DNA of 39,503 nt from a virus (taxonomy: Duplodnaviria; Heunggongvirae; Uroviricota; Caudoviricetes), in the IMG/VR virus record IMGVR_UViG_2718218309_000001. One strand, 5' to 3'. Positions 1 through 39,146 of this stretch are shown here, one piece after another. Under the pieces are notes generated by a model. It worked only from the letters and a program-made list of their open reading frames with translations, did not search any database and had not been told where the DNA came from. The position numbers and the translations under genes were made by a program. How positions within the stretch are numbered: the first letter of the stretch is position 1; every line of letters begins with the position of its first letter.

Positions 1-1749
1 ATGACAGTGGCAAATTATAATTCTCTTGTCCAGAAAACTTTCTGCGAAAATGCAATTCGTTCCGTTGTCATGATTGATGACGATTTTCTGACGTATTCTG
101 AATCAATCAGGGCGTTGAATAACGAAGTTGATTTAGACTACAACAAAATTGACTCATCTAAACGAGCCGCTACTCTTGAGAGCTTTTTTCAATCTAAAAA
201 TATGATTTGTGATGTTGACAATGGTTCTGTTAATTTCGATGTGGATCGGATTAGAAAATCAGATCTTATTATTGTAGATTATCATCTTGATAATAATGCA
301 CCTGATAAAACACTTAAACCATTACAAGATTTGAAAGACTCCGATCATTTAAATATGATTGTAATATATACTAGAGAGAATTTAGAAACGGTTTGGATGC
401 AGATATCATCGACTCTCAAAGGTGCTCTGGATATCAACAGCTTGATCATTGACTACGATAATGAAGATGTCCAAAGTTATTGGGAAGACGTTGTATTACC
501 GAACTTAAATGATAATGGTAATAAAGCTCTCACAAGAGATGAAACAATAGCCTATATTAAAGACAGTAAGCCTTGTAGAAGAATTAAAAGATTAATACAT
601 GATGATGCTGTGTTGGAGGATCAAAAGGATAAAAACTTCATTGCAAAAATGATTGCAGAATATGCTGTGTCTAGAAATGCAATTATTTCTAGCAACACAT
701 CTGGCAATGTCATTCGGGGTGATGAAAGCGGAGTAAAATGGATTCAATGTGGTAATATCTTTGTCTCCCTATTTCATAAGGTTCAAGATGATCATGAAAA
801 CGATGGAGATAGGATTTGGCAAACTCTCAATGATTCTCTCATTGAATGGAAACCATCTTATTATCAGTTAATAAAATCTGAAATTCAGAATGCAATCGAA
901 GCTGAGGCTTTATCTTTTGTAAATCATTTGGCTAACGATCATTACGGTCAAGCTGCGTGGTTAAATGAGATATTAAAATCAGACTCGCCTGATATTAGAT
1001 GTAGAAATATTGACTTTGTATTTGGTAATTTATCAGAAGAGCTTTATCAAAGACTTAAAAATAATAATACGCTGGATGAATTTATCAAAAGTGTTTTTGA
1101 TAGCTATTCAAATGAATACGCTAACAGCGGAGTTGCTGCATTGCTCCAATATTGCTCTTCAAAAATGGATCTGCCATCAAATAATGATACTTATCACGAA
1201 ATGTATCATGCTTTAAATATGAATTTGTCTTCAAAGAATTTTGAAGATGGTCATATTTCTACTGGCACTATTTTCTTTGATACAGAGTCGAACAAATGGT
1301 ATTTATGTGTATCTGCGGCATGTGATTTGGTTCCTACTCAGGGTAACGACCCTCACCATGTAAGATTAAGTCCGCACAGGCTCATTAAAGTTCTGGAGCT
1401 TTTTAACGCCAGTCAGAGTAAAGCATTGCCATTTGCTGAACATTCGAAATATATATATGTAATGCATAAAAATCAAAGAAAATATCTCTCTATTTTCGAA
1501 GGGGATAAAACGCTTCCTGTTGTTGATTATATGGTGGTGTTGAATCATGGAACAACAGTTGATGGCGAAGAAAAAAATATTATTTCTGCCGTGTTTTTAA
1601 GTAATATGGATGGCAACGTGCAAAATGTTCCTGTCCGACTCAAACTTAAATCTCAACTGAGAACTGGTTATGCAGAAAGATATCAGGCTATAGCGTCTCA
1701 GTATAGCTCAAGGATTGGTGTGGATTATGTATCAATGATGCTACCATAA
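1..1749 (+). CDS. Hypothetical 582-aa protein; N-terminal alpha/beta domain with acidic motifs (VVMIDDD, DLIIVDYHLD, MIVIYT, STLKG) reminiscent of receiver/PIN/Toprim-type folds; no P-loop seen
   Basis: Long uninterrupted ORF from ATG at position 1; AT-rich codon usage unlike the prophage core; alternating hydrophobic strands ending in Asp residues. Domain assignment is inference only. Confidence 0.6.
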   Translation: MTVANYNSLVQKTFCENAIRSVVMIDDDFLTYSESIRALNNEVDLDYNKIDSSKRAATLESFFQSKNMICDVDNGSVNFDVDRIRKSDLIIVDYHLDNNAPDKTLKPLQDLKDSDHLNMIVIYTRENLETVWMQISSTLKGALDINSLIIDYDNEDVQSYWEDVVLPNLNDNGNKALTRDETIAYIKDSKPCRRIKRLIHDDAVLEDQKDKNFIAKMIAEYAVSRNAIISSNTSGNVIRGDESGVKWIQCGNIFVSLFHKVQDDHENDGDRIWQTLNDSLIEWKPSYYQLIKSEIQNAIEAEALSFVNHLANDHYGQAAWLNEILKSDSPDIRCRNIDFVFGNLSEELYQRLKNNNTLDEFIKSVFDSYSNEYANSGVAALLQYCSSKMDLPSNNDTYHEMYHALNMNLSSKNFEDGHISTGTIFFDTESNKWYLCVSAACDLVPTQGNDPHHVRLSPHRLIKVLELFNASQSKALPFAEHSKYIYVMHKNQRKYLSIFEGDKTLPVVDYMVVLNHGTTVDGEEKNIISAVFLSNMDGNVQNVPVRLKLKSQLRTGYAERYQAIASQYSSRIGVDYVSMMLP

Positions 1750-1761
1750 TTATTATATTTT

Positions 1762-1789
1762 AGGCGTGGTGATTTTTTTCGCCATGCCT
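1762..1789. terminator. Hairpin (aggcgtgg / ccatgcct stem) followed by T-rich tract between convergent genes
   Basis: Inverted repeat 1762-1769 and 1782-1789 with about 12-nt loop, flanked by T runs; sits between the 3' ends of ORF 1-1749 (+) and ORF 1820-2236 (-). Confidence 0.3.
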
Positions 1790-1819
1790 ATTTTATATTT
1801 ATCATCACAATGATGTTGT

Positions 1820-2236
1820 TTATTTTTGTTTAAGTCTTCTAAGCTTCATGCATTCTAATGAGAATAATAATAGAGTTGTGCTGTATATAAAGCCAGAGTT
1901 AGTTAATAACTTTAAATTTAATGCTTCAGGATTTTCACTGAGAAAGTGAAAGGCATAAACTAAGTATACAGCTAAAGTAGCCGTTCCAATTGTTGGTCCA
2001 ATATCGCCTTGATCATGAGGTTCAAGGTTTACATTGAACTTGAAGATTAGCCATTCAAATCCCCAAGTAAAAAAAACAACTAATATCATGGCTGCGAATA
2101 ATTTCGCGATGTTATCTGCTGATGGATTCATCAGAACAGATTGTTTCTGAAAAAATTCACAAAGTGAGAGTCCGAAAAAAATAAAAAAAAGTGGTCTGGA
2201 ACTAAATTTTTCAAAAACTTTGAATAGGGTTTCCAT
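1820..2236 (-). CDS. Hypothetical small multi-pass membrane protein (138 aa, about 4 hydrophobic segments)
   Basis: ORF with several 18-22 aa hydrophobic stretches (FFIFFGLSL, AAMILVVFFTWGF, GTATLAVYLVYAF, IYSTTLLLFSL); immediately downstream of and co-directional with the P4-type integrase. Confidence 0.45.
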   Translation of the reverse strand: METLFKVFEKFSSRPLFFIFFGLSLCEFFQKQSVLMNPSADNIAKLFAAMILVVFFTWGFEWLIFKFNVNLEPHDQGDIGPTIGTATLAVYLVYAFHFLSENPEALNLKLLTNSGFIYSTTLLLFSLECMKLRRLKQK

Positions 2237-2274
2237 TTTCTTTACCTTCAGGATTATATTAGCTATTCTGATAC

Positions 2275-3546
2275 TTAGGCTACCAGAGCATTTGATCTTT
2301 GAGCTTGAACGTAATCACTCCACCATTGCATCAAACTCTGTCGCTCTATCAGATATTCTGCACGATTGTATGCTGCGATAATTTCATCTTTTTTCGAGTG
2401 GGCAAGCGCTGCCTCAAGAACTTCAGCTCTGAATTTACCAGACTCCTCTGCCGCTGTTCGTGCAATAGAACGCATACCGTGAGCTACAAGCTCGCCTCCG
2501 AACCCCATTCGGATGATAGCTGCGTTGGCTGTTTGTTCATGCATATGATTAAGAGGCGCTTTTATGCTGGGGAAAACCCATTCTCTATGCCCACTTATTG
2601 ATTTCATTAATTCAAGGATGCGCAAAGCTTCTTTACTCAAAGGAACTTTGTGAAGCTTTTTCATTTTCATGAAATCAGCAGGAATGTTCCAAATGCTGTT
2701 GGTTGTATCAATATCAGACCACCTTGCGCGAACGGCTTCACCCGGACGAACCCATGTCAACAATTGCCATTCAATTAGCATACGTGTTTCCAACCGGATT
2801 GACGCATTCGTCAAAGATTCCATAAACCTTGGCAATTCGCTTGGGGGAAGGGCAGGCATATTTTGCTTTTTTGGTTTACTGAATCTTTGACCAAGGTTGT
2901 CAGCCGGGTTGAACTCAATAAGTTCTTCAGTAGCTGCCCACCGGAAGATTTCATTCAGACGTGAAATGATACGGCGTAGAGTTTCCAATACGCCTCGTTG
3001 CTCAATAGGATCAAGGTGTTGTTTTAAGAGCTTAGGTCGGATCTCATTGATAGGGACATTACCCAGACCGGGAAAGACATTTCTCTCTAAGCTGCGCCAG
3101 ATGTCTGCTGCATGGTCTTGTGAGATACCTGATGTCTTTACCTTCTCATCTAACCATTTCCGCGCTACGGCTTGGAGAGTGTGCTCAGTAGCACTCTTTA
3201 ATGCCTTCGCCTTATCGTTGTTATGGATTTGGGGATCAACACCATTTGCCAGAAAGGAGAGATATTCATCACGTAAGGCTCTGGCTCTTGCAAGGGTAAG
3301 GTGAGGATATGTCCCAAGGCTCATTTTGGTTCTTTTCTTGCTCACTGGTACTGCATACCTGAAATACCAATTTTTCTTGCCTCCTTTCGCCAAAGGAGCG
3401 ATTCGTAGAATCAGACCATCACCGTCAAACAAGTTGATTTCTTTATCGGCTGGCTTGGTGCTTTTGATTTCAGTGTCAGTGAGCTTCTTAGCGATTTTTG
3501 CCATTTTGGGACCCTCGGTTTTTGGACCCTTCTTAGTGGGTCCCAT
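2275..3546 (-). CDS. int: P4-family tyrosine integrase (CP4-57 IntA-like); true start probably the internal Met (MAKIAKKLTDTEIK, near 3504)
   Basis: N-terminal TDTEIKSTKP...DGDGL...WYFRY motif block typical of P4-type integrases; C-terminal catalytic region with R...H..R..Y-type residues (HGMRS, AHS...YNRAEY); adjacent to att copy. Confidence 0.9.
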   Translation of the reverse strand: MGPTKKGPKTEGPKMAKIAKKLTDTEIKSTKPADKEINLFDGDGLILRIAPLAKGGKKNWYFRYAVPVSKKRTKMSLGTYPHLTLARARALRDEYLSFLANGVDPQIHNNDKAKALKSATEHTLQAVARKWLDEKVKTSGISQDHAADIWRSLERNVFPGLGNVPINEIRPKLLKQHLDPIEQRGVLETLRRIISRLNEIFRWAATEELIEFNPADNLGQRFSKPKKQNMPALPPSELPRFMESLTNASIRLETRMLIEWQLLTWVRPGEAVRARWSDIDTTNSIWNIPADFMKMKKLHKVPLSKEALRILELMKSISGHREWVFPSIKAPLNHMHEQTANAAIIRMGFGGELVAHGMRSIARTAAEESGKFRAEVLEAALAHSKKDEIIAAYNRAEYLIERQSLMQWWSDYVQAQRSNALVA

Positions 3547-3669
3547 TCAGGGTGCCATAACTCGTAGTTCTCAGCAATTCTCACTGGACGACAATAGACG
3601 TAAAAAAGCCCGCAGAGCTTGTGCTGTGTGGGCTTAGTAGACTTCATTGAACTTCAAACAACTAAAAAG

Positions 3670-3714
3670 TGGTGGAGCTGGCGGGAGTTGAACCCGCGTC
3701 CGAAATTCCTACAT
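3670..3714. repeat. 45-bp direct repeat of the ssrA 3' end (att core copy; junction between prophage and P4-like island)
   Basis: tggtggagctggcgggagttgaacccgcgtccgaaattcctacat is identical to 39102-39146 (the 3' end of ssrA); sequences diverge immediately outside. Confidence 0.9.
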
Positions 3715-5075: not shown

Positions 5076-6203
5076 TCATTCCAAATGATCTGCCGCCGCT
5101 TTGCCGCCAAGGATTTTCATATAAGGAGGCTTAGCATAAACCTCCTTGGTCTGCTGGAAAGTGGTTTTGGAGAATCTTCTTTCTTCTGATTGTAAATATT
5201 TTAGCAGACGTTGATATTTGTTTTCTAATATTTGACTATTCCCAGCCAGATCGTAAATATCGCAGGTTATGTTATAAAGCCAATAAACTACGGCTTTGAT
5301 TTCAGGCTCTGAGAAATAGGTTGTGTTAAATACATATTCATTATTATGATTGTAAATGTAGGAGTGTTTCCTTTGTATAGTGTTAACCTTAAGTAGCTTC
5401 ATAAGGTTGATAATTTTAAGGTCAATAGAAATTAAAGAAATTATCTCTGACTTCAAATCACCCTTTTTGATACCAATAATTTCTTTATCAAGTTCATTCC
5501 AGGCATTTATGATTTTTTGCGTGAATTTTGGGGAAGGGCTATAAATTGCACCAGTATTTTGTGAAGATTGAAATAAATTATTATAAAGCTTATGAGGAAA
5601 TACAATTTTCACTTCGTAAGTATTTACTTTTTCACTTGATTCTATATAAGCATGGCTAGCCACTTCAGCAGCCACATGCCTTGTTCGATCAGTCTGCGTG
5701 GGGATATATTCAAGAACCAAAGTAGGGAATGAACTAATCGTTTCGATAAATAGTTTTAAATGAGAGTAATAAGCGTCTGCATTGTTTTTAACTTTAGCTG
5801 ATTGTATCTGTGATTCAGTTTGAATGGTTCTATGAATATTATTTACTATTGAAGCCAGTGGCACTGATGAAGCTAATAATAGCAACGGAAGTTTACTAAT
5901 ATTAAGAAAATTTGCAAACCCGTCGGTTGTCAGTTGTAAACTATGATCTCTCCAAACCCAGCAACCGAATAAAATAAAATAGTAAAATGGTAATAAGATA
6001 GAAGCTATAAACAAAGGTTGTTTGAATAAATTATTGTCATTTAACTCAAACCACCCGTAAAAATAAAACAGTCCTATTGTTATAAATAATGAGGTTATTG
6101 CCACCGTTAAGAACATTACCTCAAAACCATAATATATTGTAAAAGTATTTGCAACTATGGATAGTAAGAGCAAAAAAGTTAAAGTGATAATTTTATTTTT
6201 CAT
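5076..6203 (-). CDS. Hypothetical membrane protein (375 aa): about 4 N-terminal TM helices plus about 280-aa soluble C-terminal domain
   Basis: Hydrophobic segments in the first 90 aa; start ATG (6203-6201) overlaps the int stop codon (TGA 6202-6200), i.e. ATGA translational coupling with int; AT-rich. Confidence 0.6.
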   Translation of the reverse strand: MKNKIITLTFLLLLSIVANTFTIYYGFEVMFLTVAITSLFITIGLFYFYGWFELNDNNLFKQPLFIASILLPFYYFILFGCWVWRDHSLQLTTDGFANFLNISKLPLLLLASSVPLASIVNNIHRTIQTESQIQSAKVKNNADAYYSHLKLFIETISSFPTLVLEYIPTQTDRTRHVAAEVASHAYIESSEKVNTYEVKIVFPHKLYNNLFQSSQNTGAIYSPSPKFTQKIINAWNELDKEIIGIKKGDLKSEIISLISIDLKIINLMKLLKVNTIQRKHSYIYNHNNEYVFNTTYFSEPEIKAVVYWLYNITCDIYDLAGNSQILENKYQRLLKYLQSEERRFSKTTFQQTKEVYAKPPYMKILGGKAAADHLE

Positions 6204-7219
6204 AAGTTAATCATATTCAACGGGTTTTTGGTAACTGCATCTTCTAAATGATCTGGGGAGAAATGTGCATAGATCATTGTCATCTTAATATCGGCATGCC
6301 CAAGAATTTCTTTAAGAACAAGTATATTACCGCCATTCATCATGAAATAGCTTGCGAAGGTATGCCGCAGCACGTGGGTACATTGGCCCTCTGGCAAGTC
6401 GATACCAGCTCGTTTCACTGCGCGCTCAAAAGCTTTTCTGCATGGCGTGAATAGTTTCCCTCTGTTTTTGGGGAGTTCATCATACAGCTCCTGAGATATC
6501 GGTATGGTACGGTTTTTCTTGCCTTTAGTTTTGGTATAGGTGATCCGGTATTTAGTTAACTGATGGCCTTGAAGGTTTTCTGCTTCACTCCATCGCGCGC
6601 CGGTAGCCAGGCATATTTTTGCAATCATCAATAGGCTGGAGCTATGAGAATCTGCGCAAGCATCAAGCAGGCGTTTAATTTCTTCCGTGGTCAGGAACGC
6701 CAGCTCACCTTCTGCGATTTTAAATGTTGGCAAACCGGCGAGTGGATTGGGTGCTGACCAATGGCCCAACTTTTTCAGTGTGCCAAACACGGATGATAGG
6801 TTGCGTTGTTCAAGGTTTACCGTGCGAGGCTTAACTGGCGACATAAGCACGCCATCTTCATTTCGCACCTCACCTTTTAGCCGTGCTTCGCGGTATTTCG
6901 TAAAGTCGCCAGCGGTTAACTCTGAGGCAACAGGATCACCCAGGCCGTTACAAATAATGTTGAGTTTTGCCATCAGGCGTTTGGGGTCAGCAAGTGTCTG
7001 CCCGTAGAGTGAATGCCATTGCTCAATCACTTCTGACAAACGCCGCCGATCTTCTTTCTCACCCAACCACGGTTTTTTGTTTACTTCGTCCATGGTGTGA
7101 TTTTCGAATGCTATGGCCTCACCTTTCGTCGCAAATTGTTTGCGCACACGCTTGCCGTCGCGCCCGTTAGGGTAGCACTCACATAACCATTTACCGTTCG
7201 GCTGTTTTCTGATGGTCAT
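6200..7219 (-). CDS. int: P2/186-type tyrosine integrase
   Basis: 339-aa protein with N-terminal MTIRKQPNGKWLCE... and C-terminal catalytic residues (R...HVLRHTFAS...YAHF), as in P2 Int; located next to the repressor gene as in P2/186. Confidence 0.9.
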   Translation of the reverse strand: MTIRKQPNGKWLCECYPNGRDGKRVRKQFATKGEAIAFENHTMDEVNKKPWLGEKEDRRRLSEVIEQWHSLYGQTLADPKRLMAKLNIICNGLGDPVASELTAGDFTKYREARLKGEVRNEDGVLMSPVKPRTVNLEQRNLSSVFGTLKKLGHWSAPNPLAGLPTFKIAEGELAFLTTEEIKRLLDACADSHSSSLLMIAKICLATGARWSEAENLQGHQLTKYRITYTKTKGKKNRTIPISQELYDELPKNRGKLFTPCRKAFERAVKRAGIDLPEGQCTHVLRHTFASYFMMNGGNILVLKEILGHADIKMTMIYAHFSPDHLEDAVTKNPLNMINL

Positions 7220-7222
7220 AAG

Positions 7223-7873
7223 TTAGAGGCTCTTGATTACTTTGGCTGCTCGTCCTACAACTTCCACATCATCTACAGAGCATTCAAATGAAGTGTCATC
7301 TTGGTGAACTACTATTTTGTTTCCGGGTATACGTGCAATTTTGACGATGTTTTTCATACCGTCGATGTCTATGAGCCAAATTCCGTTACTAAGCTGTTTT
7401 GCTGATGTGTCAACGATGTAATTGCCATCGCTAGCTTTGACGTACAAACAGTATTCGGCTTTTCCGGGTATCAAACTCTGATCAAGGAAAACATCTTCCA
7501 GCTCTTCGAGCGTTCCGTTCTCAATGGTTGCCTGCCGTACTGATGGGATAACAATCTTTGAAAGGGGGCGAACTGTAGGTGAACTCTCGTTTTTGAACTT
7601 ATTTTTTTCTTCTGTTTGAGGATACATTTCCCCTTGGCCCGTTGTCAGCCAAAGCAGAGAAATACCTGTTTCAAGGGCACATTGAATAACCCAGTCAGCG
7701 GGAAAGCTATCACGTAACATCCTGTTTGCCATGGTACTTTTTGATGCTTCGAGATGTTCAACTAACGCTATTTGAGTGTTGAAACCATAGGCGGTCATCA
7801 GCCTTTTGATGGTCTCCCTTCCTCCCGTATTTGCACCTGTATTGATCTTCAAGATGAACTCTCCATTTGACAA
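7223..7873 (-). CDS. cI: Phage 186 CI-like immunity repressor
   Basis: Resembles 186 CI (AYGF..., CALETG..LWLTTGQGE, C-terminal VDDVEVVGR); divergent from apl across an operator-containing intergenic region. Start codon uncertain (track start is a non-ATG codon). Confidence 0.8.
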   Translation of the reverse strand: MSNGEFILKINTGANTGGRETIKRLMTAYGFNTQIALVEHLEASKSTMANRMLRDSFPADWVIQCALETGISLLWLTTGQGEMYPQTEEKNKFKNESSPTVRPLSKIVIPSVRQATIENGTLEELEDVFLDQSLIPGKAEYCLYVKASDGNYIVDTSAKQLSNGIWLIDIDGMKNIVKIARIPGNKIVVHQDDTSFECSVDDVEVVGRAAKVIKSL

Positions 7874-7902
7874 TCCAATAATGGGATCGTATTTTTGTGT
7901 TC

Positions 7903-9584: not shown

Positions 9585-9824
9585 TTGATTATGCGTAATA
9601 TTGAAACCCTCACGACTAAAACCGGACCGGATGATGCAGGGCTTAATATTTTACTGACAGAGGCTCGTCTGGAAGAACGCCGGGCAAGGGCTGAAGCAAT
9701 GGCAGCTCGCCTTGATAGCCTGGCGTGTCATATCACATCCCGCCAGCTAAACCACGTCGAAGCAGCAGAACTGCTGCGTGTAACTGCTGAAGCAATCCAG
9801 AACGAAGCGCAGGAGATCCACTAA
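9585..9824 (+). CDS. Hypothetical early protein (P2 orf81-region analogue)
   Basis: Co-directional ORF; stop overlaps the next gene start. Confidence 0.5.
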   Translation: MIMRNIETLTTKTGPDDAGLNILLTEARLEERRARAEAMAARLDSLACHITSRQLNHVEAAELLRVTAEAIQNEAQEIH

Positions 9825-10051
9825 TGGCTGATGCAATGGATCTCGTACAGCAGCGCGTTGAAGAAGAACGCCAGCGCCATATCCGTGCTGCCCGTGCCAA
9901 AACGCCGGGCGTGTCCCGCGTGCTTTGCATTGAGTGTGAAGCGCCAATTCCGCCAGCACGCCGCCGCGCCATTCCAGGTGTGCAGCTTTGCATTACCTGT
10001 CAGGAAATCGCAGAGCTGAAAGGCAAACATTACAACGGAGGTGCTGTATGA
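9824..10051 (+). CDS. TraR/DksA-family C4 zinc-finger protein
   Basis: CIECEAPIP...CITCQ (Cx2C-N17-Cx2C) in a 75-aa protein, as in P2 orf82/TraR-like proteins. Confidence 0.75.
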   Translation: MADAMDLVQQRVEEERQRHIRAARAKTPGVSRVLCIECEAPIPPARRRAIPGVQLCITCQEIAELKGKHYNGGAV

Positions 10052-10905
10052 GCACCATCCTGAAATGGGCGGGAAATAAAACCGCAATTATGTCCGAACT
10101 GAAAAAACACCTTCCTGCTGGCCCGCGACTGGTTGAACCTTTCGCGGGTTCCTGTGCTGTGATGATGGCGACGGATTATCCAAGCTATCTGGTTGCGGAT
10201 ATTAATCCTGATTTAATCAACCTCTATAAAAAGGTTGCCGCTGATTGTGAATCGTTTATATCTCGCGCCAGAGTTTTATTTAAGGAAGCAAACAGGGAGG
10301 TGGCTTATTACAACATAAGGCAGGAGTTTAATTACTCAACTGAAATTACTGATTTCATGAAAGCGGTATATTTCCTGTATCTCAATCGTCACGGTTACCG
10401 TGGTTTATGTCGCTATAACAAGAGCGGGCATTTCAACATTCCGTACGGTAATTATAAAAATCCGTATTTCCCTGAAAAAGAAATTCGCGCATTTGCAGAG
10501 AAAGCCCAGCGGGCAACGTTTATCTGCGCAAGCTTTGATGAAACGCTGGCGATGCTGCAGGTGGGGGATGTGGTGTATTGCGATCCGCCGTATGACGGTA
10601 CGTTTTCCGGCTATCACACTGATGGTTTCACTGAAGATGACCAGTATCACCTAGCATCCGTTCTTGAACATCGGTCATCAGAAGGACATCCGGTCATTGT
10701 TTCTAACAGTGACACATCCCTGATCCGTTCGCTATATCGCAATTTTACTCACCACTACATCAAGGCAAAACGCAGCATCGGTGTGGCAGCTGGTGAGAGT
10801 AAATCTGCAACAGAAATCATCGCTGTTTCCGGGCCGCGCTGCTGGGTGGGATTTGATCCTTCGCGTGGCGTGGATAGTTCTGCCGTGTACGGAGTGCGTG
10901 CATGA
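10048..10905 (+). CDS. dam: DNA adenine methyltransferase (Dam family, GATC-type)
   Basis: N-terminal SAM-binding block (KWAGNK...LVEPFAGS) and catalytic DPPY motif ([10 protein letters not shown]); ATG at 10048; stop overlaps the A start (ATGA). Confidence 0.9.
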
Positions 10906-13316
10906 GCCATGCTGATATGAACAACTGCAGCGGCTTTAACGAGGCCGCCGCAGCATTCTCATGGAACAGCCCGAAAAAGGCCATTAACCCTTATCTGGAC
11001 CCGGCGGAAGTTGCGCCGGTTTCTGCGCTTTCAAACCTGATCACTCTGTACGCTGCTGATAACGAGCAGGAACAGCTGCGCCGTGAGGCGCTGAGTGATC
11101 AGGTCTGGGAGCGTTATTTCTTTAATGAATCCCGTGATCCTGTCCAGCGCGAAATGGAACAGGATAAGCTCATTAGTCGGGCAAAGCTGGCGCATGAGCA
11201 GCAGCGTTTTAATCCGGATATGGTCATTCTGGCGGACGTCAACGCCCAGCCTTCCCATATCAGCAAGCCGCTGATGCAACGTATTGAATACTTCAGCAGC
11301 CTGGGCAGGCCAAAGGCTTATTCCCGCTATTTGCGTGAGACGATTAAGCCATGTCTGGAACGACTGGAGCATGTACGCGACAGTCAGCTATCCACTTCTT
11401 TTCGCTTTATGGCAAGCCATGAAGGGCTGGACAGTCTGCTGATCCTGCCTGAAATGAGTCAGGATCAGGTGAAACGCCTGTCCACCCTGGTAGCTGCGCA
11501 TATGAGCATGTGCCTTGATGCCGCTTGTGGCGATTTGTATGCCACCGATGACGTTAAGCCAGAAGAAATCCGCAAGACATGGGAAAAGGTGGCGGCGGAA
11601 ACCCTGCGACTGGATGTCATACCGCCTGCGTTTGAGCAACTCCGCCGGAAAAGAAACCGCCGTAAACCCGTGCCCTATGAACTCATTCCGGGGTCGCTGG
11701 CGCGTATGCTGTGCGCCGACTGGTGGTATCGGAAATTGTGGAAGATGCGTTGCGAATGGCGGGAAGAGCAGTTGCGTGCTGTTTGCCTGGTCAGCAAAAA
11801 AGCATCTCCCTATGTCAGCTATGAAGCCGTGATGCATAAACGTGAGCAGCGCCGTAAGTCGCTGGAGTTTTTCCGTTCTCATGAACTGGTGAACGAAGAC
11901 GGCGACACGCTGGACATGGAGGATGTGGTAAACGCCAGCAGCAGCAACCCTGCGCATCGCCGCAATGAGATGATGGCCTGTGTTAAAGGTCTGGAGCTTA
12001 TCGCGGAAATGCGCGGTGACTGCGCCGTTTTCTACACCATCACCTGTCCGTCACGTTTCCATTCCACGCTAAATAACGGCAGGCCCAACCCGACCTGGAC
12101 AAATGCGACGGTAAGACAAAGCAGTGATTATCTGGTCGGCATGTTTGCTGCATTTCGTAAGGCGATGCACAAAGCCGGATTGCGCTGGTATGGCGTGCGG
12201 GTGGCTGAGCCGCATCATGACGGTACAGTTCACTGGCATCTGTTGTGTTTTATGCGCAAAAAAGATCGCCGCACCATTACTGCTTTGTTGCGTAAGTTTG
12301 CCATTCGTGAAGACCGCGAGGAGCTGGGTAATAACACGGGACCACGCTTTAAGTCTGAGCTGATAAACCCGCGCAAAGGTACGCCAACAAGCTACATCGC
12401 GAAATACATCAGTAAGAACATTGACGGGCGTGGTCTGGCTGGCGAGATCAGCAAGGAAACGGGTAAATCCCTGCGTGATAACGCTGAATACGTTAATGCC
12501 TGGGCGTCTCTGCATCGTGTTCAGCAATTCCGCTTCTTTGGCATTCCGGGGCGTCAGGCTTACCGTGAACTGCGATTGCTGGCTGGTCAGGCGGCAAGGC
12601 AACAGGGGGACAAAAAAGCAGGTGCGCCGGTACTGGATAACCCGCGCCTTGATGCAATCCTGGCTGCTGCTGATGCTGGTTGTTTTGCCACCTACATCAT
12701 GAAGCAGGGCGGCGTACTGGTTCCCCGCAAATATCACCTCATCAGAACTGCTTATGAAATCAACGAAGAACCGACCGCATATGGCGATCACGGTATTCGT
12801 ATTTATGGCATCTGGTCACCCATTGCAGAGGGCAAGATCTGCACTCATGCGGTGAAGTGGAAAATGGTTCGTAAGGCCGTTGACGTTCAGGAGGCGGCAG
12901 CCGACCAGGGCGCTTGCGCCCCTTGGACTCGTGGCAATAACTGTCCCCTTGCTGAAAATTTGAACCAACAGGAGAAAGATAAATCAGCAGATGGGGATAC
13001 CAGAACTGATATTACCTGCATGGATGACAAGGAATTGCACGATTACCTGCACAATATGAGCAAAAAAGAGCGCCGGGAACTGGCAGCAAGATTACGCCTG
13101 GTTAAACCGAAACGGCGTAAAGACTACAAACAGCGAATTACAGAGCATCAGCGTCAGCAGCTCGTCTATGAACTGAAGTCCAGAGGATTTGATGGCAGCG
13201 AGAAAGAGGTCGATTTGCTCCTTCGCGGTGGCAGTATTCCGTCAGGAGCAGGCCTGCGTATCTTCTATCGGAACCAGCGTTTGCAGGAAGATGATAAGTG
13301 GCGGAACCTGTATTAA
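10902..13316 (+). CDS. A: Replication initiation protein A (rolling-circle nickase, P2 gpA / 186 RepA)
   Basis: 804-aa protein with the HxH...Y(I)AKYISK active-site region (TVHWHLLCF ... [11 protein letters not shown]) characteristic of P2 gpA. Confidence 0.9.
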
Positions 13317-13408
13317 TTACGCGGGTTAACAATTCGTGCTCTTAATAATACCAGGCATATCAGGCTGATGAACGTAAAAAAACGTTTTACATCAGTAAGA
13401 TTATTATA

Positions 13409-13428
13409 TACTGTAAATATAAACAGTG
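13409..13428. promoter_or_regulatory. LexA box (SOS operator) TACTGTAAATATAAACAGTG
   Basis: Matches CTGT-N8-ACAG with AT-rich spacer; lies about 45 bp upstream of ORF 13470 and the DinI-like gene. Confidence 0.55.
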
Positions 13429-13469
13429 TTTATGCATACAGTGTTGCTTGTGGTGTCATAGGAGGAAAG

Positions 13470-13658
13470 ATGCAGGACTATTTTTTGGAGTCTTTGAAGC
13501 TCCAGCGCATTGATTTTTTTCTTAAGCTTGTAGCGGCTAGTGAGTGTAGTGATGAAGAGAAGGGGCTGGCTCTGCAGTGGGTTTCTGAATTGACTGATGA
13601 ACTCATGGCAAAAATCAGAAGCCACGAATACAACCGCTCAATGGATGTCATCAGCTGA
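13470..13658 (+). CDS. Hypothetical small protein (62 aa), first gene of putative SOS-controlled operon
   Basis: GGAGGA RBS 4-9 nt upstream of ATG 13470; preceded by LexA box. Confidence 0.5.
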   Translation: MQDYFLESLKLQRIDFFLKLVAASECSDEEKGLALQWVSELTDELMAKIRSHEYNRSMDVIS

Positions 13659-13668
13659 GGTGACTTTT

Positions 13669-13902
13669 ATGCGCATTGAAATAATGATCGATAAAGAGCA
13701 GAAGATTAGCCAGTCTACCCTGGACGCTCTGGAGTCCGAGCTTTACCGCAACCTGCAACCCATCTATCCCAAGACAGCTATCCGCATCCGTAAAGGGTCG
13801 GCAAACGGCGTTGAGCTGAGTGGCTTAAAGCTTGATGAAGACAAAAAGCGGGTGATGGAAATTATGCAGCAGGTTTGGGAAGACGACAGCTGGCTGCACT
13901 AA
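13669..13902 (+). CDS. dinI: DinI-family protein (77 aa)
   Basis: MRIEIMIDKEQ...LDALESEL...IMQQVWEDDSWL follows the DinI pattern (MRIEV...ETWE..DW); GAGGTG RBS. Confidence 0.8.
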   Translation: MRIEIMIDKEQKISQSTLDALESELYRNLQPIYPKTAIRIRKGSANGVELSGLKLDEDKKRVMEIMQQVWEDDSWLH

Positions 13903-13975
13903 GGAACGTTCCTGATGTAAGAACTTGATTCTGACGTCAGCAAGGTTGAACAACGAGAGTAGCGAGGCGTTAGCC

Positions 13976-14236
13976 ATGGGTAAAAAAGACAGTAATCACC
14001 AGATTATTTATCGGGGCCAGGTGCTGGAACGGTTTACCCCTGGCGGCTGGGTCTTCTTTCAACGCCCAAAGGAGTGTGGCGGAGGTTTTTGGTTGGGCCG
14101 CACCTATGAAGACTGCTTCTGGCTTGAGCTGGAATTCCCCGTTTCGCTATATGACGGCCTGGAGTTTTTGATGGAAGTCACCAGGGTAGAGCAGAGAAGT
14201 GATGAGGTTGACGCGAATTATTCCCTGTTTGATTAA
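13976..14236 (+). CDS. Hypothetical protein (86 aa), possible Tum-like or other accessory protein
   Basis: ORF following the DinI-like gene; assignment is positional only. Confidence 0.45.
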   Translation: MGKKDSNHQIIYRGQVLERFTPGGWVFFQRPKECGGGFWLGRTYEDCFWLELEFPVSLYDGLEFLMEVTRVEQRSDEVDANYSLFD

Positions 14237-14284
14237 AAATGTATTAGCTTATAATGGAATACTATTTTTGCAGGTGGGGGCGCA

Positions 14285-14896
14285 ATGGATTTAGTCTTTA
14301 AAATTCTGGCTTCGTTGGGTGGGGTGTCTTTTGTTGCATCTGGCATATTTGTTTGGATCGGGAAAGTTTATTTAGAAAGATATAAGTCGCGGCTAAACAA
14401 AGATATTGCTGAATTTCAATCACAACTGAGTGCAACTAATGAAAGAATAAAGGCTAAGTTAGACAATTCTGTTTATGTAACGAAAGCGTATTTTGATAAG
14501 GAGTTATCAGCATATAGTCTCATTTGGAATTCGATGTTTGAAACCAGAGAAAGCGTGCTTAAGCTGAGGCCTGCGCTGGATCATTTTGACCCCAACGAAC
14601 CATTTGAAGAGAGAAAATTTAGAAGGTTGAAAGTTTTTTTCGATGCATTTAATACTTTTGTTACAAGTGTTGAGTCTAACAAACCGTTCATCTCACCAGA
14701 GGTTTATATAATCTTGGACCGTTTCCGGAAGGAATGCTTTTCAGAGTCAATATCGTTTCAGCATGGCGATCCAGAATTTGACTGGCAAAATTATTGGAAA
14801 GAGGCAGAGTTGAATCGTACAACCATCACCAAGCTTTTTGATGAGACGTGTGATGCAATTCGAGACAGGATGCACACATTAACTGTGGTTACGTAG
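14285..14896 (+). CDS. Hypothetical membrane-anchored protein (203 aa; N-terminal TM helix plus helical cytoplasmic domain); hotspot cargo at the tin/old position
   Basis: N-terminal hydrophobic segment ILASLGGVSFVASGIFVWIG; AT-rich; lies between gene A and cos where P2 carries the anti-phage genes tin and old. Confidence 0.6.
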   Translation: MDLVFKILASLGGVSFVASGIFVWIGKVYLERYKSRLNKDIAEFQSQLSATNERIKAKLDNSVYVTKAYFDKELSAYSLIWNSMFETRESVLKLRPALDHFDPNEPFEERKFRRLKVFFDAFNTFVTSVESNKPFISPEVYIILDRFRKECFSESISFQHGDPEFDWQNYWKEAELNRTTITKLFDETCDAIRDRMHTLTVVT

Positions 14897-14987
14897 TTTT
14901 CCAAAAAGTCTCGATGCCCGCTTTGGCGATTGTGCATGTCTATGCCGCATGAATCCGCATGATCGTTTGAGGATCGTTTTAGCTGAG

Positions 14988-15011
14988 GCCCGCTAGGAAT
15001 GGCGGGCTTTT
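14988..15011 (+). terminator. Rho-independent terminator (GCCCGC-loop-GCGGGC followed by TTTT)
   Basis: Perfect 6-bp GC stem with 8-nt loop and T tract downstream of ORF 14285-14896. Confidence 0.45.
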
Positions 15012-15056
15012 GCTTATGTCATGCAGACGCATGAAAACCACTACATAAAGCGGGCA

Positions 15057-15075
15057 GGCGTGGCGGGGATACGAG
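15057..15075. other. cos site (cohesive-end sequence) of the P2/186-type prophage
   Basis: GGCGTGGCGGGGATACGAG closely matches the 19-nt cohesive ends of 186 (GGCGTGGCGGGGAAAGCAT) and P2 (GGCGAGGCGGGGAAAGCAC), recalled from memory. Confidence 0.55.
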
Positions 15076-15185
15076 CGCGCGCTCATGGTTGAATTAATGA
15101 AATTATGGTGTTAAATAGGCTAGCTTTTTAAGTCGTGAATATTCAATTTTTCAACTCATTTTTTTCATAGGGAGGAGTAATTGAC

Positions 15186-15884
15186 ATGGTTATGTTAGTG
15201 GATGACTGTCCACGATGTGGATCACAAAAAATAGCGTTTGATGTTAATGGGCTGAATTGCACTAGGGTTTACAATGCATTGGGCGGGGGTAAAACATACG
15301 AGTACGAGGTCTATTGTGTTTGCCGAGAGTGTCATAAAACGACAATGTTTCTTTGCAGACCTTTAACGAAAAATAAAACTTTAGATGGCTATAATTGGGA
15401 AAGTGGAATATTCGGCTTAAAGGAAGTTGCAGAGGTTGTTAGGCCTATATCACCGGCAGACTTAGCAGTAGAGGAGCCACCAGAGTTCTTACCTGAGCAT
15501 ATCAATAGTACATATGAGGAAGGGGCGAAATGTTTGGCTATAGGTTGTTATAATGCAGCAGCAACCATGTTTAGGCTTTGCCTTGATTATGCCACAAAAG
15601 GACTTCTTCCTGATGGGGAGCAAGGGCCTGCGCAAAAAATAAGGAGAAGCCTAGGGTTAAGAATGGAGTGGTTATTTGATAATCATCTACTGCCTGAAGC
15701 TTTAAGGGAACTAGCTGAATGCGTTAAAGATGACGGAAATGATGGAGCGCATGAAGGTATTTTGGATAAAGCTGCTGCTGAGGATCTTGAAGATTTTACC
15801 TATCTTTTTTTAGAACGGCTTTACACTGAACCTCAACGCCTTATCGAAGCCAAGACAAGGCGTGAACAAAGAAGAAACAAATAA
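15186..15884 (+). CDS. Hypothetical Zn-ribbon protein (232 aa): N-terminal CPRCG...CRECH plus C-terminal helical domain; cargo between cos and Q
   Basis: Cx2C-N30-Cx2C at the N-terminus; GGAGGAG RBS; AT-rich; stop is only 8 bp from the Q stop. Confidence 0.65.
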   Translation: MVMLVDDCPRCGSQKIAFDVNGLNCTRVYNALGGGKTYEYEVYCVCRECHKTTMFLCRPLTKNKTLDGYNWESGIFGLKEVAEVVRPISPADLAVEEPPEFLPEHINSTYEEGAKCLAIGCYNAAATMFRLCLDYATKGLLPDGEQGPAQKIRRSLGLRMEWLFDNHLLPEALRELAECVKDDGNDGAHEGILDKAAAEDLEDFTYLFLERLYTEPQRLIEAKTRREQRRNK

Positions 15885-28638: not shown

Positions 28639-29021
28639 AATATTATTCACCTTCAATTAATGGATTTCCCGAACAAAAGACTGATGACAGTATTGAGATC
28701 AGTGAAGAGGTCTGGAGAATACTTCTTAGTGAAATTTACTCAGGCCGGGAGTTATTTAACGATGGCGGCGTACCCGCTACCCGTGTGCCGCAACCTACGC
28801 AAGAACAAGTAATTGCAGCCGCAGAAAATGAGCGCCAACGATTGCTGAATTATGCTGATACCGTAATGCTCGACTGGCGTACAGAATTGATGCTGGGTGA
28901 AATCAGCGACGCCAACAGGGCTAAATTGTCGGCGTGGCTGGCTTATAAAAATCAAGTTAAGTCGGTTGATGTGACAACTGACCCTGAGCATGTTAACTGG
29001 CCTGTTCCCCCGGAGGCGTAG
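28635..29021 (+). CDS. G: Tail fibre assembly protein (P2 gpG-like)
   Basis: 128-aa protein after H; conserved Tfa C-terminal motif (...NWPVPPEA). Confidence 0.8.
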   Translation: MKYYSPSINGFPEQKTDDSIEISEEVWRILLSEIYSGRELFNDGGVPATRVPQPTQEQVIAAAENERQRLLNYADTVMLDWRTELMLGEISDANRAKLSAWLAYKNQVKSVDVTTDPEHVNWPVPPEA

Positions 29022-29436
29022 GCCATTCAATATCTGGCGCACTGGAGGTATCAACCAGTTCCAGTGCGTCCAGATAATCCAGCCATAAATTATATTGTTC
29101 CAGCTCGTCACCTTTCAGACGACCAATAGCAGCTTTGCCAGGCCACTGATGGGTATTGATGTAGGTATTGACTTCTGAAACCAAAGATATTTTTTTCATT
29201 TCAGCCGTCAACACCTCATCCTCTTTTGAAGGGGGTGGGGAATTAATCCATACTGGCCGTCCTGAACTGTCAGCGCCAATTTCTTTCCCTTCTGGATGCA
29301 GCCCAAGAAATTGCTCATATGTTTCTCGGTTAATTTCAATAACATCATCTGGAAGCGTTCCCGCATCCTCATATTCTGGAAACAATTCTTGTAGATAAAA
29401 ACTTTTACTTCCGGGTGAAAAGAATACTGAGTTCAT
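28993..29436 (-). CDS. Alternative tail fibre assembly protein (tfa') in inverted orientation
   Basis: 147-aa protein with the same C-terminal motif family (...EWPTPPGEQAS); convergent with G, 3' ends overlap. Confidence 0.75.
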   Translation of the reverse strand: MNSVFFSPGSKSFYLQELFPEYEDAGTLPDDVIEINRETYEQFLGLHPEGKEIGADSSGRPVWINSPPPSKEDEVLTAEMKKISLVSEVNTYINTHQWPGKAAIGRLKGDELEQYNLWLDYLDALELVDTSSAPDIEWPTPPGEQAS

Positions 29437-29438
29437 TA

Positions 29439-29933
29439 TTACCGTCCAATGATTAACGCTGAGACGCTGGTATCTGAAGGAAAGGCTGCATTCAGTGGTT
29501 TGTCGACTTTGAATACAATCGTATTATTCCCCCGGACAGCGGCAAAAGAACAAACCGCCGTCGCGTATGAACCTGTAATATTACTGGATACACCACCATA
29601 GGTTGTTGTTGATACCAGAGGGATAACGCCCAGCACCTTATTAGGAAATACAAAGGGCAATGTGGCTGTGGCAATATAAGACTTATTAGAACCTGTGATG
29701 GCATAAGCATTATCAGTCATTCCATTCATCGCCACTGGGCCGCTTATACTTACAGTAACCATCTGAATGATTAGCCCGTCAGGTTGACGAATCACAAAAT
29801 TTCCATTGCCACCAGTAACCGTCCAGAAAGACATATCAGGGATTTGGTTTTCCCCGTTGCCCACATTCCGTTTTGCCGCTTCTCCCAAACCAACGTTTAA
29901 GAAAATGCAGAGGTAACAGCTAACTGGCATCAT
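29439..29933 (-). CDS. Alternative tail fibre C-terminal segment (H'), expressed as a fusion to the H N-terminus after inversion
   Basis: Frame stays open upstream of the listed Met through the right crossover site (…LGEAAKRNV…); Gly/Thr/Ser-rich beta-type composition typical of fibre tips. Confidence 0.7.
   Translation of the reverse strand: MMPVSCYLCIFLNVGLGEAAKRNVGNGENQIPDMSFWTVTGGNGNFVIRQPDGLIIQMVTVSISGPVAMNGMTDNAYAITGSNKSYIATATLPFVFPNKVLGVIPLVSTTTYGGVSSNITGSYATAVCSFAAVRGNNTIVFKVDKPLNAAFPSDTSVSALIIGR
29871..29893. repeat. Right crossover site of the invertible segment (inverted copy of 28184-28206)
   Basis: See left site; about 1.7 kb apart, invertase gene immediately outside. Confidence 0.55.
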
Positions 29934-29960
29934 CTCCGGTTTTTATTCAGGGGGATGATC

Positions 29961-30527
29961 ATGCTTATTGGCTATGTACGCGTGTCAACAAATGACCAGA
30001 ACACCGATTTGCAACGTAATGCACTGAACTGCGCGGGATGTGAGCAGATTTTTGAGGACAAAATCAGTGGCACTAAGTCCGACAGACCGGGGCTGAAAAA
30101 ACTACTCAGGACACTATCGGCAGGAGACACGCTGGTTGTCTGGAAGCTGGACAGGTTGGGGCGCAGTATGCGGCATCTTGTTACGCTGATAGAAGAGTTG
30201 CGCCAGCGTGGTGTGAATTTCAGAAGCCTGACTGACAGTATTGATACCAGTACCCCAATGGGCCGTTTCTTTTTTCATGTCATGGGTGCCCTGGCTGAAA
30301 TGGAACGCGAACTGATAGTTGAACGTACCAGGGCAGGGCTGGCTGCAGCTCGTGCCAAAGGCAGAGTAGGTGGACGCCGTCCTAAGTTGACCACCGAACA
30401 GTGGGCACAGATTGGGCGTTTACTCGAGGCCGGAGAATCAAGACAGCGTATTGCACTGATTTTTGATGTAGGCGTTTCTACCATTTATAGAAAATTTCCG
30501 GCAAATAAGATCAATGAATCCCCCTGA
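29961..30527 (+). CDS. Serine-recombinase DNA invertase (Hin/Gin/Pin/Cin family)
   Basis: MLIGYVRVSTNDQNTDLQ (catalytic Ser motif), ...DTLVVWKLDRLGRS..., C-terminal HTH (GVSTIYRKF); about 188 aa; adjacent to the inverted repeats. Confidence 0.9.
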   Translation: MLIGYVRVSTNDQNTDLQRNALNCAGCEQIFEDKISGTKSDRPGLKKLLRTLSAGDTLVVWKLDRLGRSMRHLVTLIEELRQRGVNFRSLTDSIDTSTPMGRFFFHVMGALAEMERELIVERTRAGLAAARAKGRVGGRRPKLTTEQWAQIGRLLEAGESRQRIALIFDVGVSTIYRKFPANKINESP

Positions 30528-37507: not shown

Positions 37508-37597
37508 TTCTTCACAATGGAGAACTTTTAAGTTTGAAAAATGGAATAATGCGATATCATTATTGTGAATTTAGCAAAAATGGGGAGAACTCGAAAA

Positions 37598-37816
37598 ATG
37601 ATGATTTGCCCACTGTGTGGAAGTGCCGCCCATACTCGCAGCAGTTTTCAGGTATCTTCATTGACCAAAGAGCGTTACAACCAGTGCCAGAACATTAACT
37701 GCAGCCATACTTTTGTTACCCATGAAACTTTTGTTCGTTCGATTGCAACGCCAAAAGAGTCAAATCCGGTTCAGCCGCATCCTCATAAATTTAAACAGGT
37801 GGGTTTGCCGATTTAA
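37598..37816 (+). CDS. ogr: Late gene transcriptional activator Ogr (zinc-finger)
   Basis: MMICPLCGSAAHTRSS...KERYNQCQNINCSHTF parallels P2 Ogr (CPLC...KERYHQCQNVNCSATF); 72 aa from ATG 37598. Confidence 0.9.
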   Translation: MMICPLCGSAAHTRSSFQVSSLTKERYNQCQNINCSHTFVTHETFVRSIATPKESNPVQPHPHKFKQVGLPI

Positions 37817-38077: not shown

Positions 38078-38251
38078 ATGGATACAAACGAACTTGGCTT
38101 AGTTAAGGCGCGTGTTGAACTGATCACCGCTATGCTCAAATGCGCAACCGCGTTTGTTGGCTTAGTTGGTGCGGTTTACGCCGTTCTTAACATGGCCTTC
38201 AACTACAACAATTTAACTCATGACAATAGAAGTTCAAAGGTGGGAAGATAA
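38078..38251 (+). CDS. Small single-TM protein (57 aa from ATG 38078; 62 aa from ATG 38063)
   Basis: Strong RBS GGAGGA (38065-38070) 7 nt before ATG 38078; hydrophobic helix CATAFVGLVGAVYAVLNMAF; 3' end overlaps the RT start by about 30 nt. Confidence 0.45.
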   Translation: MDTNELGLVKARVELITAMLKCATAFVGLVGAVYAVLNMAFNYNNLTHDNRSSKVGR

Positions 38252-39101: not shown

Positions 39102-39146
39102 TGGTGGAGCTGGCGGGAGTTGAACCCGCGTCCGAAATTCCTACAT
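39102..39146. repeat. 45-bp att core within the ssrA 3' end (direct repeat partner of 3670-3714)
   Basis: Identical 45-mer; this copy is part of the intact tmRNA gene. Confidence 0.9.

Follow-up and report, generated by a model that had tools for sequence, protein, structure and literature searches.

A Dam-family adenine methyltransferase gene overlapping replication gene A in a P2-like prophage, and the GATC content of P2-like lineages

Why would a P2-like phage carry a DNA adenine methyltransferase of its own, directly before the gene of its replication initiator? The question is raised by dam, a gene found in a window of 39,503 nucleotides, which is the whole stretch of DNA that we analyzed. 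According to their records, the relatives of this phage come from E. coli, Salmonella, Klebsiella and Yersinia, and all of these hosts are, to our knowledge, Dam+.

The window contains a P2-like prophage integrated at ssrA. The 3′ 45 bp of the tmRNA gene are repeated exactly at positions 3670–3714 and bound an element of ~35.4 kb, which has two low-GC genes with no assigned function at its left end. The coordinates of the main features are given in Table 1. After cI, the plus strand presents, in this order, an apl-like gene, cII (Phage_CP76), fil, a small ORF, DUF5347, DUF2732, a DksA/TraR zinc-finger gene, dam and A. The zinc-finger gene is a conserved neighbour in P2, 186, RE-2010 and Fels-2, and the gene A protein is 89% identical to that of Fels-2, 30% to that of P2 and 33% to that of 186. 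The tmRNA was the sole match of an Rfam scan of the window, with no retron msr or other RNA detected. We also observed a reverse transcriptase gene at 38220–38993 (257 aa), between ogr and attR.

Table 1. Location of the features discussed in the text (positions refer to the window).
Feature	Position	Strand	Basis or remark
int	6200–7219	minus	
186-type cI, encoding a 216-aa CI	7223–7873	minus	Phage_CI_repr and Phage_CI_C
Predicted early lytic promoter, TTGACA-17-TATTTT	7867–7895	plus	Consensus scan only
DUF2732 gene	9585–9824	plus	PF10809 at 3.2e-29; stop overlaps the zinc-finger start by 1 nt (TAATG)
DksA/TraR C4 zinc-finger gene, left border of the variable slot	9824–10051	plus	PF01258 at 3.1e-11
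Zinc finger/dam junction, SD GGAGG and ATGA overlap	10037–10051	plus	Sequence
dam, 285-aa orphan Dam-family (D12 class) N6-adenine DNA methyltransferase	10048–10905	plus	
AdoMet-binding motif I region EPFAGSCAV, residues 30–38	10135–10161	plus	Aligns with EcoDam EPFVGAGSV
GATC-recognition loop, residues 117–136	10396–10455	plus	EcoDam alignment
Catalytic motif IV DPPY, residues 179–182	10582–10593	plus	Aligns with EcoDam D181–Y184
dam/A junction, SD GGAG 10891–10894, ATGA overlap 10902–10905, predicted hairpin	10884–10905	plus	Sequence, folding
Gene A, rolling-circle replication initiator/nickase, right border of the slot	10902–13316	plus	PF05840 (Phage_GPA) at 8.5e-128
tmRNA gene (ssrA)	39102–39464	minus	Rfam scan

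The first-pass annotation had described dam as a complete Dam-type methylase gene with a DPPY motif, and both its coordinates and its frame proved exact. The product matches Pfam PF02086 over the entire profile (positions 1–253 of 253) with an E-value of 6.9e-77 and 259 bits (cut-off 22), and reaches 323.9 bits with TIGR00571, ‘Dam family’, whose cut-off is 114.85. With NF008152/PRK10904, the equivalog model of chromosomal Dam, it scores 290.1 bits, below the cut-off of 441. Judged from its sequence, the enzyme belongs to a paralogous phage clade and is not an orthologue of the host Dam. Its best solved relatives are E. coli Dam (EcoDam, 2g1p; 4.5e-74), DpnM and T4 Dam, all of them GATC enzymes, and its identity to EcoDam is 48% over 258 collinear aligned residues. 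Regarding its orphan status, the gene is flanked by the zinc-finger gene and A, with no adjacent nuclease gene, and the best model in PADLOC is the orphan methyltransferase (oMTase, 4.3e-112).

Motif I lies N-terminal to the catalytic motif, in the same order as in EcoDam, and reads F-A-G-S-C, with the first Gly kept and the second (EcoDam G39) replaced by Cys36. The second Gly of motif I is also missing from T4 Dam, and by analogy its replacement probably does not matter. The DPPY tetrapeptide is invariant in all 75 dam homologues examined. In the recognition loop, residues Y117, R118, L120, R122, N124, N130, P132, N135 and Y136 correspond to EcoDam Y119, N120, L122, R124, N126, N132, P134, R137 and Y138. 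From the seven EcoDam residues assigned a role in reading GATC by structural work (PMC4417163), six are identical in the phage enzyme (K9, Y119, L122, R124, P134 and Y138) and the remaining one, N120, is Arg118; besides, the phosphate contact R137 is replaced by Asn135. The same residue pattern, including R118, is kept in about 70 homologues with 60–98% identity, and both N120→R118 and G39→C36 are fixed across the P2-like phage clade, while a 53%-identical homologue from a Yersinia phage keeps Asn at the R118 position. Conservation of this kind speaks for an enzyme that is active and recognises GATC, and such specificity is, on these alignments, very likely; the two clade-fixed replacements, one of them at a base-contacting residue, weigh against this reading. 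The clade-fixed R118 might tune site preference.

Translation of dam starts at the ATG at 10048–10050, preceded by GGAGG at 10037–10041 with a 6-nt spacer. A mechanical ORF list had placed the start at TTG 9988. We rejected this start in favour of the ATG because RE-2010 gp10 is also 858 bp long and because homology to E. coli Dam starts at residue 4 of the ATG form. At the 5′ end, the stop codon of the zinc-finger gene (TGA, 10049–10051) overlaps the dam start in an ATGA; at the 3′ end, another ATGA at 10902–10905 joins the dam stop (TGA, 10903–10905) to the ATG of gene A (10902–10904). The earlier description of dam as an early-operon gene with its stop overlapping the A start is correct. 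The SD of gene A, GGAG, sits inside dam, 7 nt before the A start, and the dam/A pair combines a stop/start overlap with a downstream SD located within the upstream gene. The overlaps at DUF2732, the zinc finger, dam and A link four consecutive genes. Folding predicted a hairpin at the zinc finger/dam junction that pairs the dam SD region (z = −2.5 versus shuffled sequence) and an 8-bp hairpin that occludes the A start codon (z = −2.2 versus shuffles); both are weak, only marginally better than shuffled sequence.

Of 68 relatives that carry dam, at least 39 showed the 4-nt overlap with A; in the remaining ones either the extrapolated start codon is unreliable or another gene intervenes before A. 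These overlaps suggest that translation of A is coupled to that of dam. A direct precedent for coupling at the pre-A junction comes from the annotation of 186, according to which A appears to be translated only if ribosomes read the preceding gene, orf84, to its end. A DNA alignment with P2 and 186 across this junction was uninformative, as the sequences are unrelated there. A scan for an intrinsic terminator early in A, similar to tM1 of 186, gave no match; it returned only a 5–8 bp GC hairpin at ~10930–10950 without a T-run.

Expression of dam can be approached from the predicted early promoter, which lies at the start of cI. Its −35 hexamer overlaps the first cI codons, the apl-like gene follows, and its position would allow it to drive apl-cII-fil-...-dam-A. 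The consensus scan revealed no other plus-strand promoter-like site upstream of dam, and none nearer to it. In the 186 record, the equivalent promoter is pR, which is repressed by CI, and the genes downstream form the early lytic operon. Being downstream of such a promoter, dam should be silent in the lysogen and made together with A upon induction or infection; by analogy with 186, expression is probably restricted to lytic growth. Given this location, the methylome of an uninduced dam-minus lysogen would probably read negative.

The first-pass annotation implied some novelty for the gene, and this does not hold: descriptions of it go back to 1990, and genome annotations routinely include it. 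In that year, Hsu, Inouye and Inouye (PNAS 87:9454) reportedly found a Dam methylase in the 34-kb 186-related prophage of retron Ec67. A phage Dam is typical of P2-like prophages of the Fels-2/RE-2010 type (Felsduovirus-like). At the DNA level, the gene is 96–97% identical to RE-2010 gp10 (YP_007003503), to its counterpart in Klebsiella phage 4LV2017 and to many other Klebsiella phage records. At the protein level, identity is 73–75% to Fels-2 STM2730, the SopEPhi homologue, SEN8 and a Yersinia phage. Escherichia phage Cartapus is a further close relative, and the relatives belong to the Peduoviridae, mostly to Felsduovirus. RE-2010, Fels-2 and SEN8 are annotated with the order DUF2732 – zinc finger – (exonuclease) – dam – A, and in Yersinia MLG42 the dam match lies directly before A, where the record has no annotated CDS. 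A Klebsiella Fels-2-like prophage has been reported to have the same arrangement, its dam measuring 858 bp and its A 2415 bp (PMC7826664). A 2-kb probe spanning dam matched 1245 of the 5426 complete E. coli genomes, where the annotation reads ‘DNA adenine methylase | replication endonuclease’. The exact protein is present on 502 contigs, and its 90% cluster has 4038 members, one of them named ‘retron EC67 DNA adenine methylase’, a name that can be traced to Hsu, Inouye & Inouye 1990 (summarised in PMC7826664). The statement that dam is not part of canonical P2 was confirmed: in that phage, the zinc-finger gene and A are separated by Orf83 (DUF5405). Phage 186 also lacks dam, and has an exonuclease gene, a DUF5405 gene and the PAPS-reductase-like orf84 in the pre-A slot.

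We then compared GATC content between phages with and without dam. The dam-less genomes of P2 and 186 have 25 and 14 GATC sites, with whole-genome observed/expected ratios of 0.19 and 0.12, whereas the dam-carrying prophage of the window, RE-2010 and Fels-2 have 122, 116 and 117 sites, with ratios of 0.89, 0.87 and 0.90, respectively. The same comparison was made on 240 loci from IMG/VR that surround gpA homologues, with 80 loci for each A lineage. Gene A of the P2-type lineage has a median of 0 GATC sites (8.8 expected) and a whole-locus ratio of 0.23; in the 186-type lineage, the median is 2 (7.8 expected) and the ratio 0.33. None of the loci from these two lineages carries dam. Regarding the lineage of the window, the median in gene A is 9 (9.1 expected), the whole-locus ratio is 0.93, and dam is present in 67 of 77 informative loci. 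This contrast, which is confounded by phylogeny because it involves three lineages only (effectively n = 3), fits published reports in which enterobacteriophages counter-select GATC, phage DNA is poorly methylated and MutH can damage it when under-methylated (PMC5014478, citing McClelland 1984 and Deschavanne & Radman 1991). The reason why enterobacterial phages avoid GATC is still called unresolved in the same work (PMC5014478). Within the prophage, we found neither depletion nor enrichment of GATC, with observed/expected ratios of 0.89 by base composition and 0.78 by a Markov model, similar to other 4-mer palindromes.

The ten dam-less loci from the lineage of the window keep normal GATC numbers. 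In eight of them the zinc-finger gene abuts A, another one has only DUF3850 in between, and the last has only a PAPS-reductase-like gene. No convincing substitute methylase was detected in the 7–21 kb available per locus when searching for ORFs of at least 120 aa with [DNS]PP[YFWH]. Hence, dam does not seem strictly needed to tolerate GATC, unless these losses are recent.

To describe the position that dam occupies, we scored the genes between the zinc-finger gene and A in the 77 informative loci of this lineage. The slot contains dam alone in 40 loci, DUF3850 and dam in 12, dam and a phrog_887 ‘queuine tRNA-ribosyltransferase’ protein of 250–276 aa in eight (one of them also with DUF3850), and dam and PAPS_reduct in five. 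Single loci combine dam with a C5-cytosine methylase (PF00145) or with an exonuclease. The slot is empty in eight loci, and is occupied by DUF3850 alone or by PAPS_reduct alone in one locus each. The phrog_887 protein gave no Pfam or NCBIfam match, and may be a DpdA-like DNA transglycosylase. Where present, dam is an intact ORF of 282–295 aa in nearly all of the 68 loci. The loci of the 186-type lineage shuffle an exonuclease, DUF5405, PAPS_reduct, DUF3850 and a transglycosylase-like gene in the slot, and those of the P2-type have DUF5405 only. What this analysis adds to the known gene is this hot-spot for DNA-modification genes before A, together with the GATC dichotomy between lineages. The companions of dam favour a role in modifying the phage’s own DNA, be it for anti-restriction or self-protection, and not in regulation.

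As for the answer to our question, we lean towards a phage-borne orphan Dam, made in lytic growth, that keeps the replicating phage DNA methylated. Transcription of dam would start at the early promoter repressed by CI and be confined to lytic growth; the overlapping frames (DUF2732 – zinc finger – dam – A) would lead to Dam being made with, and just before, the initiator A. The enzyme would transfer a methyl group from AdoMet to N6 of the adenine in GATC. Host Dam has been reported to be limiting for high-copy DNA (bioRxiv 10.1101/2020.06.22.160242); if this applies to fast-replicating phage DNA, the extra enzyme could keep its ~120 GATC sites fully methylated during rolling-circle replication. 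The phage would so be spared the penalty on unmethylated or hemimethylated GATC, for which the candidates are cleavage by MutH, binding by SeqA and GATC restriction sensitive to m6A, and virions would leave pre-methylated. The benefit that we infer is that a Dam of its own, alongside the replication initiator, would let the phage escape GATC counter-selection. More tentatively, one could picture two lineage-fixed answers to host pressure on under-methylated GATC: P2- and 186-type phages would purge nearly all of their GATC, and Felsduovirus-type phages would retain it at random frequency and carry a Dam co-translated with A, in a pre-A slot acting as a hot-spot for DNA-modification cassettes (Dam, C5-methylase, DpdA-like transglycosylase, PAPS-reductase-like). 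This wider scheme is possible, though we would not yet bet on it.

One could argue that the selective agent is restriction, and that dam is a classical anti-restriction gene by which progeny DNA is pre-methylated against GATC-recognising, m6A-sensitive enzymes (DpnII/MboI type or with overlapping sites) in the next host. This possibility overlaps with the reading that we favour, from which it differs only in the selective agent. We consider it rather unlikely: as the hosts are, as far as we know, Dam+, host methylation would already cover most of the phage DNA, and few such hosts should possess m6A-sensitive GATC restriction. Besides, dam has no restriction partner nearby. In its favour, the slot holds a C5-cytosine methylase, phrog_887 and PAPS_reduct beside dam in relatives, a pattern typical of anti-restriction cargo. 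A review includes phage orphan methylases among anti-restriction tools and reports numerous phage Dam homologues, but it still calls the in vivo role of T4 Dam unclear (PMC12707154). Restriction evasion, one of the two roles put forward in the first-pass annotation, gains circumstantial support from the modification genes in the slot and from the fact that dam-less P2 and 186 lineages purge GATC while the dam lineage does not, and is a reasonable suggestion. The other role, epigenetic control of replication and late genes, found no support. Under such a scheme, the timing of packaging, of replication or of the lytic programme would be set by GATC methylation at phage promoters or at the origin, with P1 Dam at pac as the model. 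GATC sites occur at random frequency in the prophage and are under-clustered, with two pairs within 15 bp (6.1 expected) and six within 30 bp (11.9 expected), which leads us to reject clusters marking SeqA sites or epigenetic switches. The P2 ori nick aligns to about position 12924, in a gappy and approximate alignment, and the nearest GATC sites are at 12786 and 12836, the closer one ~88 nt away. A single GATC is found in a predicted promoter: from the two intergenic GATC sites left of A, one (7885) is located in the early promoter, between its −35 and −10 hexamers. In P2, too, a GATC falls within O1, an operator of the early promoter Pe. Excision of SopEPhi in Salmonella is reportedly favoured by Dam methylation (PMC7380047). 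However, there are dam-less relatives in the same lineage, and single regulatory sites would be methylated by host Dam in any case, so we regard a regulatory role as quite improbable.

The remaining explanations concern the specificity, the timing and the usefulness of the enzyme. The replacement of a base-contacting Asn by R118, fixed in the P2-like clade while the 53%-identical Yersinia homologue retains Asn, could extend methylation beyond GATC and give broader protection. We find this quite improbable, given that the readers of the G:C and T:A pairs (R124, L122, P134, K9 and Y138) are all conserved. Specificity is usually shared in the range of identity, 48%, that separates the phage enzyme from EcoDam. 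A REBASE-based table lists a GATC methylase only in the two strains carrying RE-2010 (PMC4661946), although this link is indirect. Another option is lysogenic conversion, with Dam expressed from the prophage altering the methylome, mutation rate or virulence of the host. The high frequency of the prophage in E. coli genomes would suit this idea, as would the effects of excess Dam on host processes, including the triggering of retron-Sen2 toxin-antitoxin systems (bioRxiv 10.1101/2020.06.22.160242). Yet dam lies within overlapping lytic genes behind a repressed promoter, with no promoter-like site of its own, and host Dam already has the same predicted specificity, which makes conversion very unlikely. 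Finally, dam could be a decaying passenger with no current function, as ten relatives lost it without an obvious change in GATC. This we find barely credible in view of the intact ORF in nearly all of the 68 loci, the catalytic and recognition residues that are invariant down to 60% identity, and the presence of the exact protein on so many contigs.

By itself, the gene is ordinary: a routinely annotated Dam in one of the commonest prophage types of E. coli, Salmonella and Klebsiella. Nevertheless, Dam from an induced prophage may confound methylome or dam-mutant experiments. Excess Dam from E. coli, Salmonella and phage P1 triggers the retron-Sen2 toxin-antitoxin defence (bioRxiv 10.1101/2020.06.22.160242); with three sources having this effect, the phage Dam described here might also be sensed by such systems. 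Because they differ so sharply in GATC, the P2-like lineages with and without dam make a clean natural system for testing why enterobacterial phages avoid it. If the link between GATC and dam is causal, loss of dam should sensitise the phage to MutH, SeqA or an unknown GATC-sensing defence.

In order to contextualize these results, we compared the locus with known systems. RE-2010, Fels-2, SopEPhi, SEN8, 4LV2017 and Cartapus carry this gene at an equivalent position (zinc finger – dam – A), with 285 aa and a stop overlapping the A start. Differences within this group lie in immunity, RE-2010 having a short P2 C-type repressor instead of the 186-type CI found here; in the annotated dam/A overlap, which is 10 nt in Fels-2 and SEN8 versus 4 nt in the window; and in the cargo genes, which differ between the Fels-2/RE-2010 group and this prophage. 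The Dam of retron Ec67 shares its name with a member of the same 90% cluster, a likeness by annotation name only, and Fels-2 STM2730 is annotated as similar to it. The Ec67 reverse transcriptase, however, has 586 aa, and retron Ec67 is located between cos and a DNA packaging gene (PMC6868368), so we rejected an identification with the 257-aa enzyme of the window, which lies elsewhere, between ogr and attR. The chromosomal Dam of E. coli (2g1p) belongs to the same fold family and has in common with the phage enzyme DPPY and residues K9, Y119, L122, R124, P134 and Y138. It differs by N120→R, R137→N, G39→C and a 5-residue deletion after DPPY in the phage protein. The latter, encoded by a phage and probably made in lytic growth alone, also has an unrelated C-terminal tail of 22 residues, which carries the SD and the start of A. 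The Dmt/Dam of P1 and the Dam of T4 are also phage GATC adenine methylases from the same Pfam family, but with identities of only 23–36%. P1 needs GATC methylation at pac (PMC12707154). This rationale is not transferable to P2-like phages, which package from cos, with cos ends annotated in the records of P2 and 186. A positional counterpart outside the dam-carrying lineage is 186 orf84 (PAPS-reductase-like, PF01507), which occupies the same slot and has the same 4-nt overlap with A, but belongs to a different protein family.

GATC content was compared in the whole genomes of P2 (L009), 186 (L010 and L004), RE-2010 (L001 and L011) and Fels-2 (L012), together with 240 IMG/VR loci around gene A homologues (L013-L252). 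The tetranucleotide is nearly missing from P2-type and 186-type phages, with 25 sites in the P2 genome and 14 in that of 186, and in the loci their gene A contains 0 to 2 GATCs vs the ~8-9 expected. In the lineage of the window prophage it occurs at random frequency, at ~120 sites per genome. Among the genomes and loci compared, dam is confined to this GATC-rich lineage, ten members of which lack dam and retain a normal GATC content. Regarding the protein itself, codon 118 of dam (window 10399-10401) encodes Arg where E. coli Dam has the base-contacting Asn120. This Arg is invariant in every P2-like phage Dam that we examined, down to 60% identity, and the change is absent from a 53%-identical Yersinia phage homologue.

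The predicted early lytic promoter of the window prophage also has a GATC in its spacer (position 7885). One of the 25 GATCs of P2 (position 25899 of the P2 record) falls within operator O1, in the interval that separates the -35 and -10 elements of the early promoter Pe. The placement in both early promoters may be a coincidence.

The slot that separates gene A from the zinc-finger gene carries further genes in relatives, either beside dam or replacing it (see the table). The phrog_887 protein is possibly a DpdA-type DNA transglycosylase, and DNA-modification cargo appears to have a hot-spot in this slot.

Features of the window and of the slot in relatives (L-numbers, comparison loci)
Feature	Location	Strand	Remarks
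Other slot genes in relatives	L045:4596-5426, L091:4796-5548, L069:4998-6182, L039:4788-5798, L081:6226-7545, L077:6105-6578
Slot gene in relatives, queuine-tRNA-ribosyltransferase-like			phrog_887; no Pfam match
Slot gene in relatives, C5-cytosine methylase
Slot genes in relatives, PAPS-reductase-like
Slot gene in relatives, DUF3850/ASCH
P4-type integrase (second integrase)	2275-3546	-	Arm-DNA-bind_3 and Phage_integrase
Two low-GC (32-33%) genes, 397 and 375 aa	3828-5021, 5076-6203	both -	between attL and int
Cargo region, several genes	13368-15884	+	gene A to portal gene
DinI-like protein	13597-13902	+
phrog_2100 protein, 84-103 aa	within 13368-15884	+
phrog_26391 protein, 203 aa	14285-14896	+	function unknown
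DUF4145 protein, 232 aa	15186-15884	+	defence candidate PD-T7-4 matches weakly, 1.1e-6
Hin/Gin/Cin-type DNA invertase	29955-30527		Resolvase, 2.3e-53
Small reverse transcriptase, 257 aa	38220-38993	+	RVT_1, 2e-21

The two low-GC genes gave no match in Pfam and PADLOC searches, and their products matched only function-unknown PHROGs families (phrog_7835 and phrog_17460). The pair has the appearance of prophage cargo and may form a defence module. The reverse transcriptase, placed between ogr (37565-37816) and attR, has FMDD instead of YADD. Its top PADLOC model is the retron-type RT_VI (6.6e-18), and an Rfam search of the window found no retron RNA. We take it to be similar to the reverse transcriptases of Abi-P2 type that P2-like coliphages carry.

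In the leftmost part of the window (1-3714), the P4-type integrase lies immediately to the left of the ssrA 3'-end copy at attL, so ssrA appears to be occupied by two elements in tandem. Beyond this integrase lie low-GC genes, including one (1-1749) whose 582-aa product contains a Response_reg_2 domain.

Finally, the invertase adjoins tail-fibre C-terminal and tail-fibre-assembly genes in opposite orientation. This stretch (28993-30527) is the usual invertible host-range segment, and its counterpart in Fels-2 is annotated likewise.
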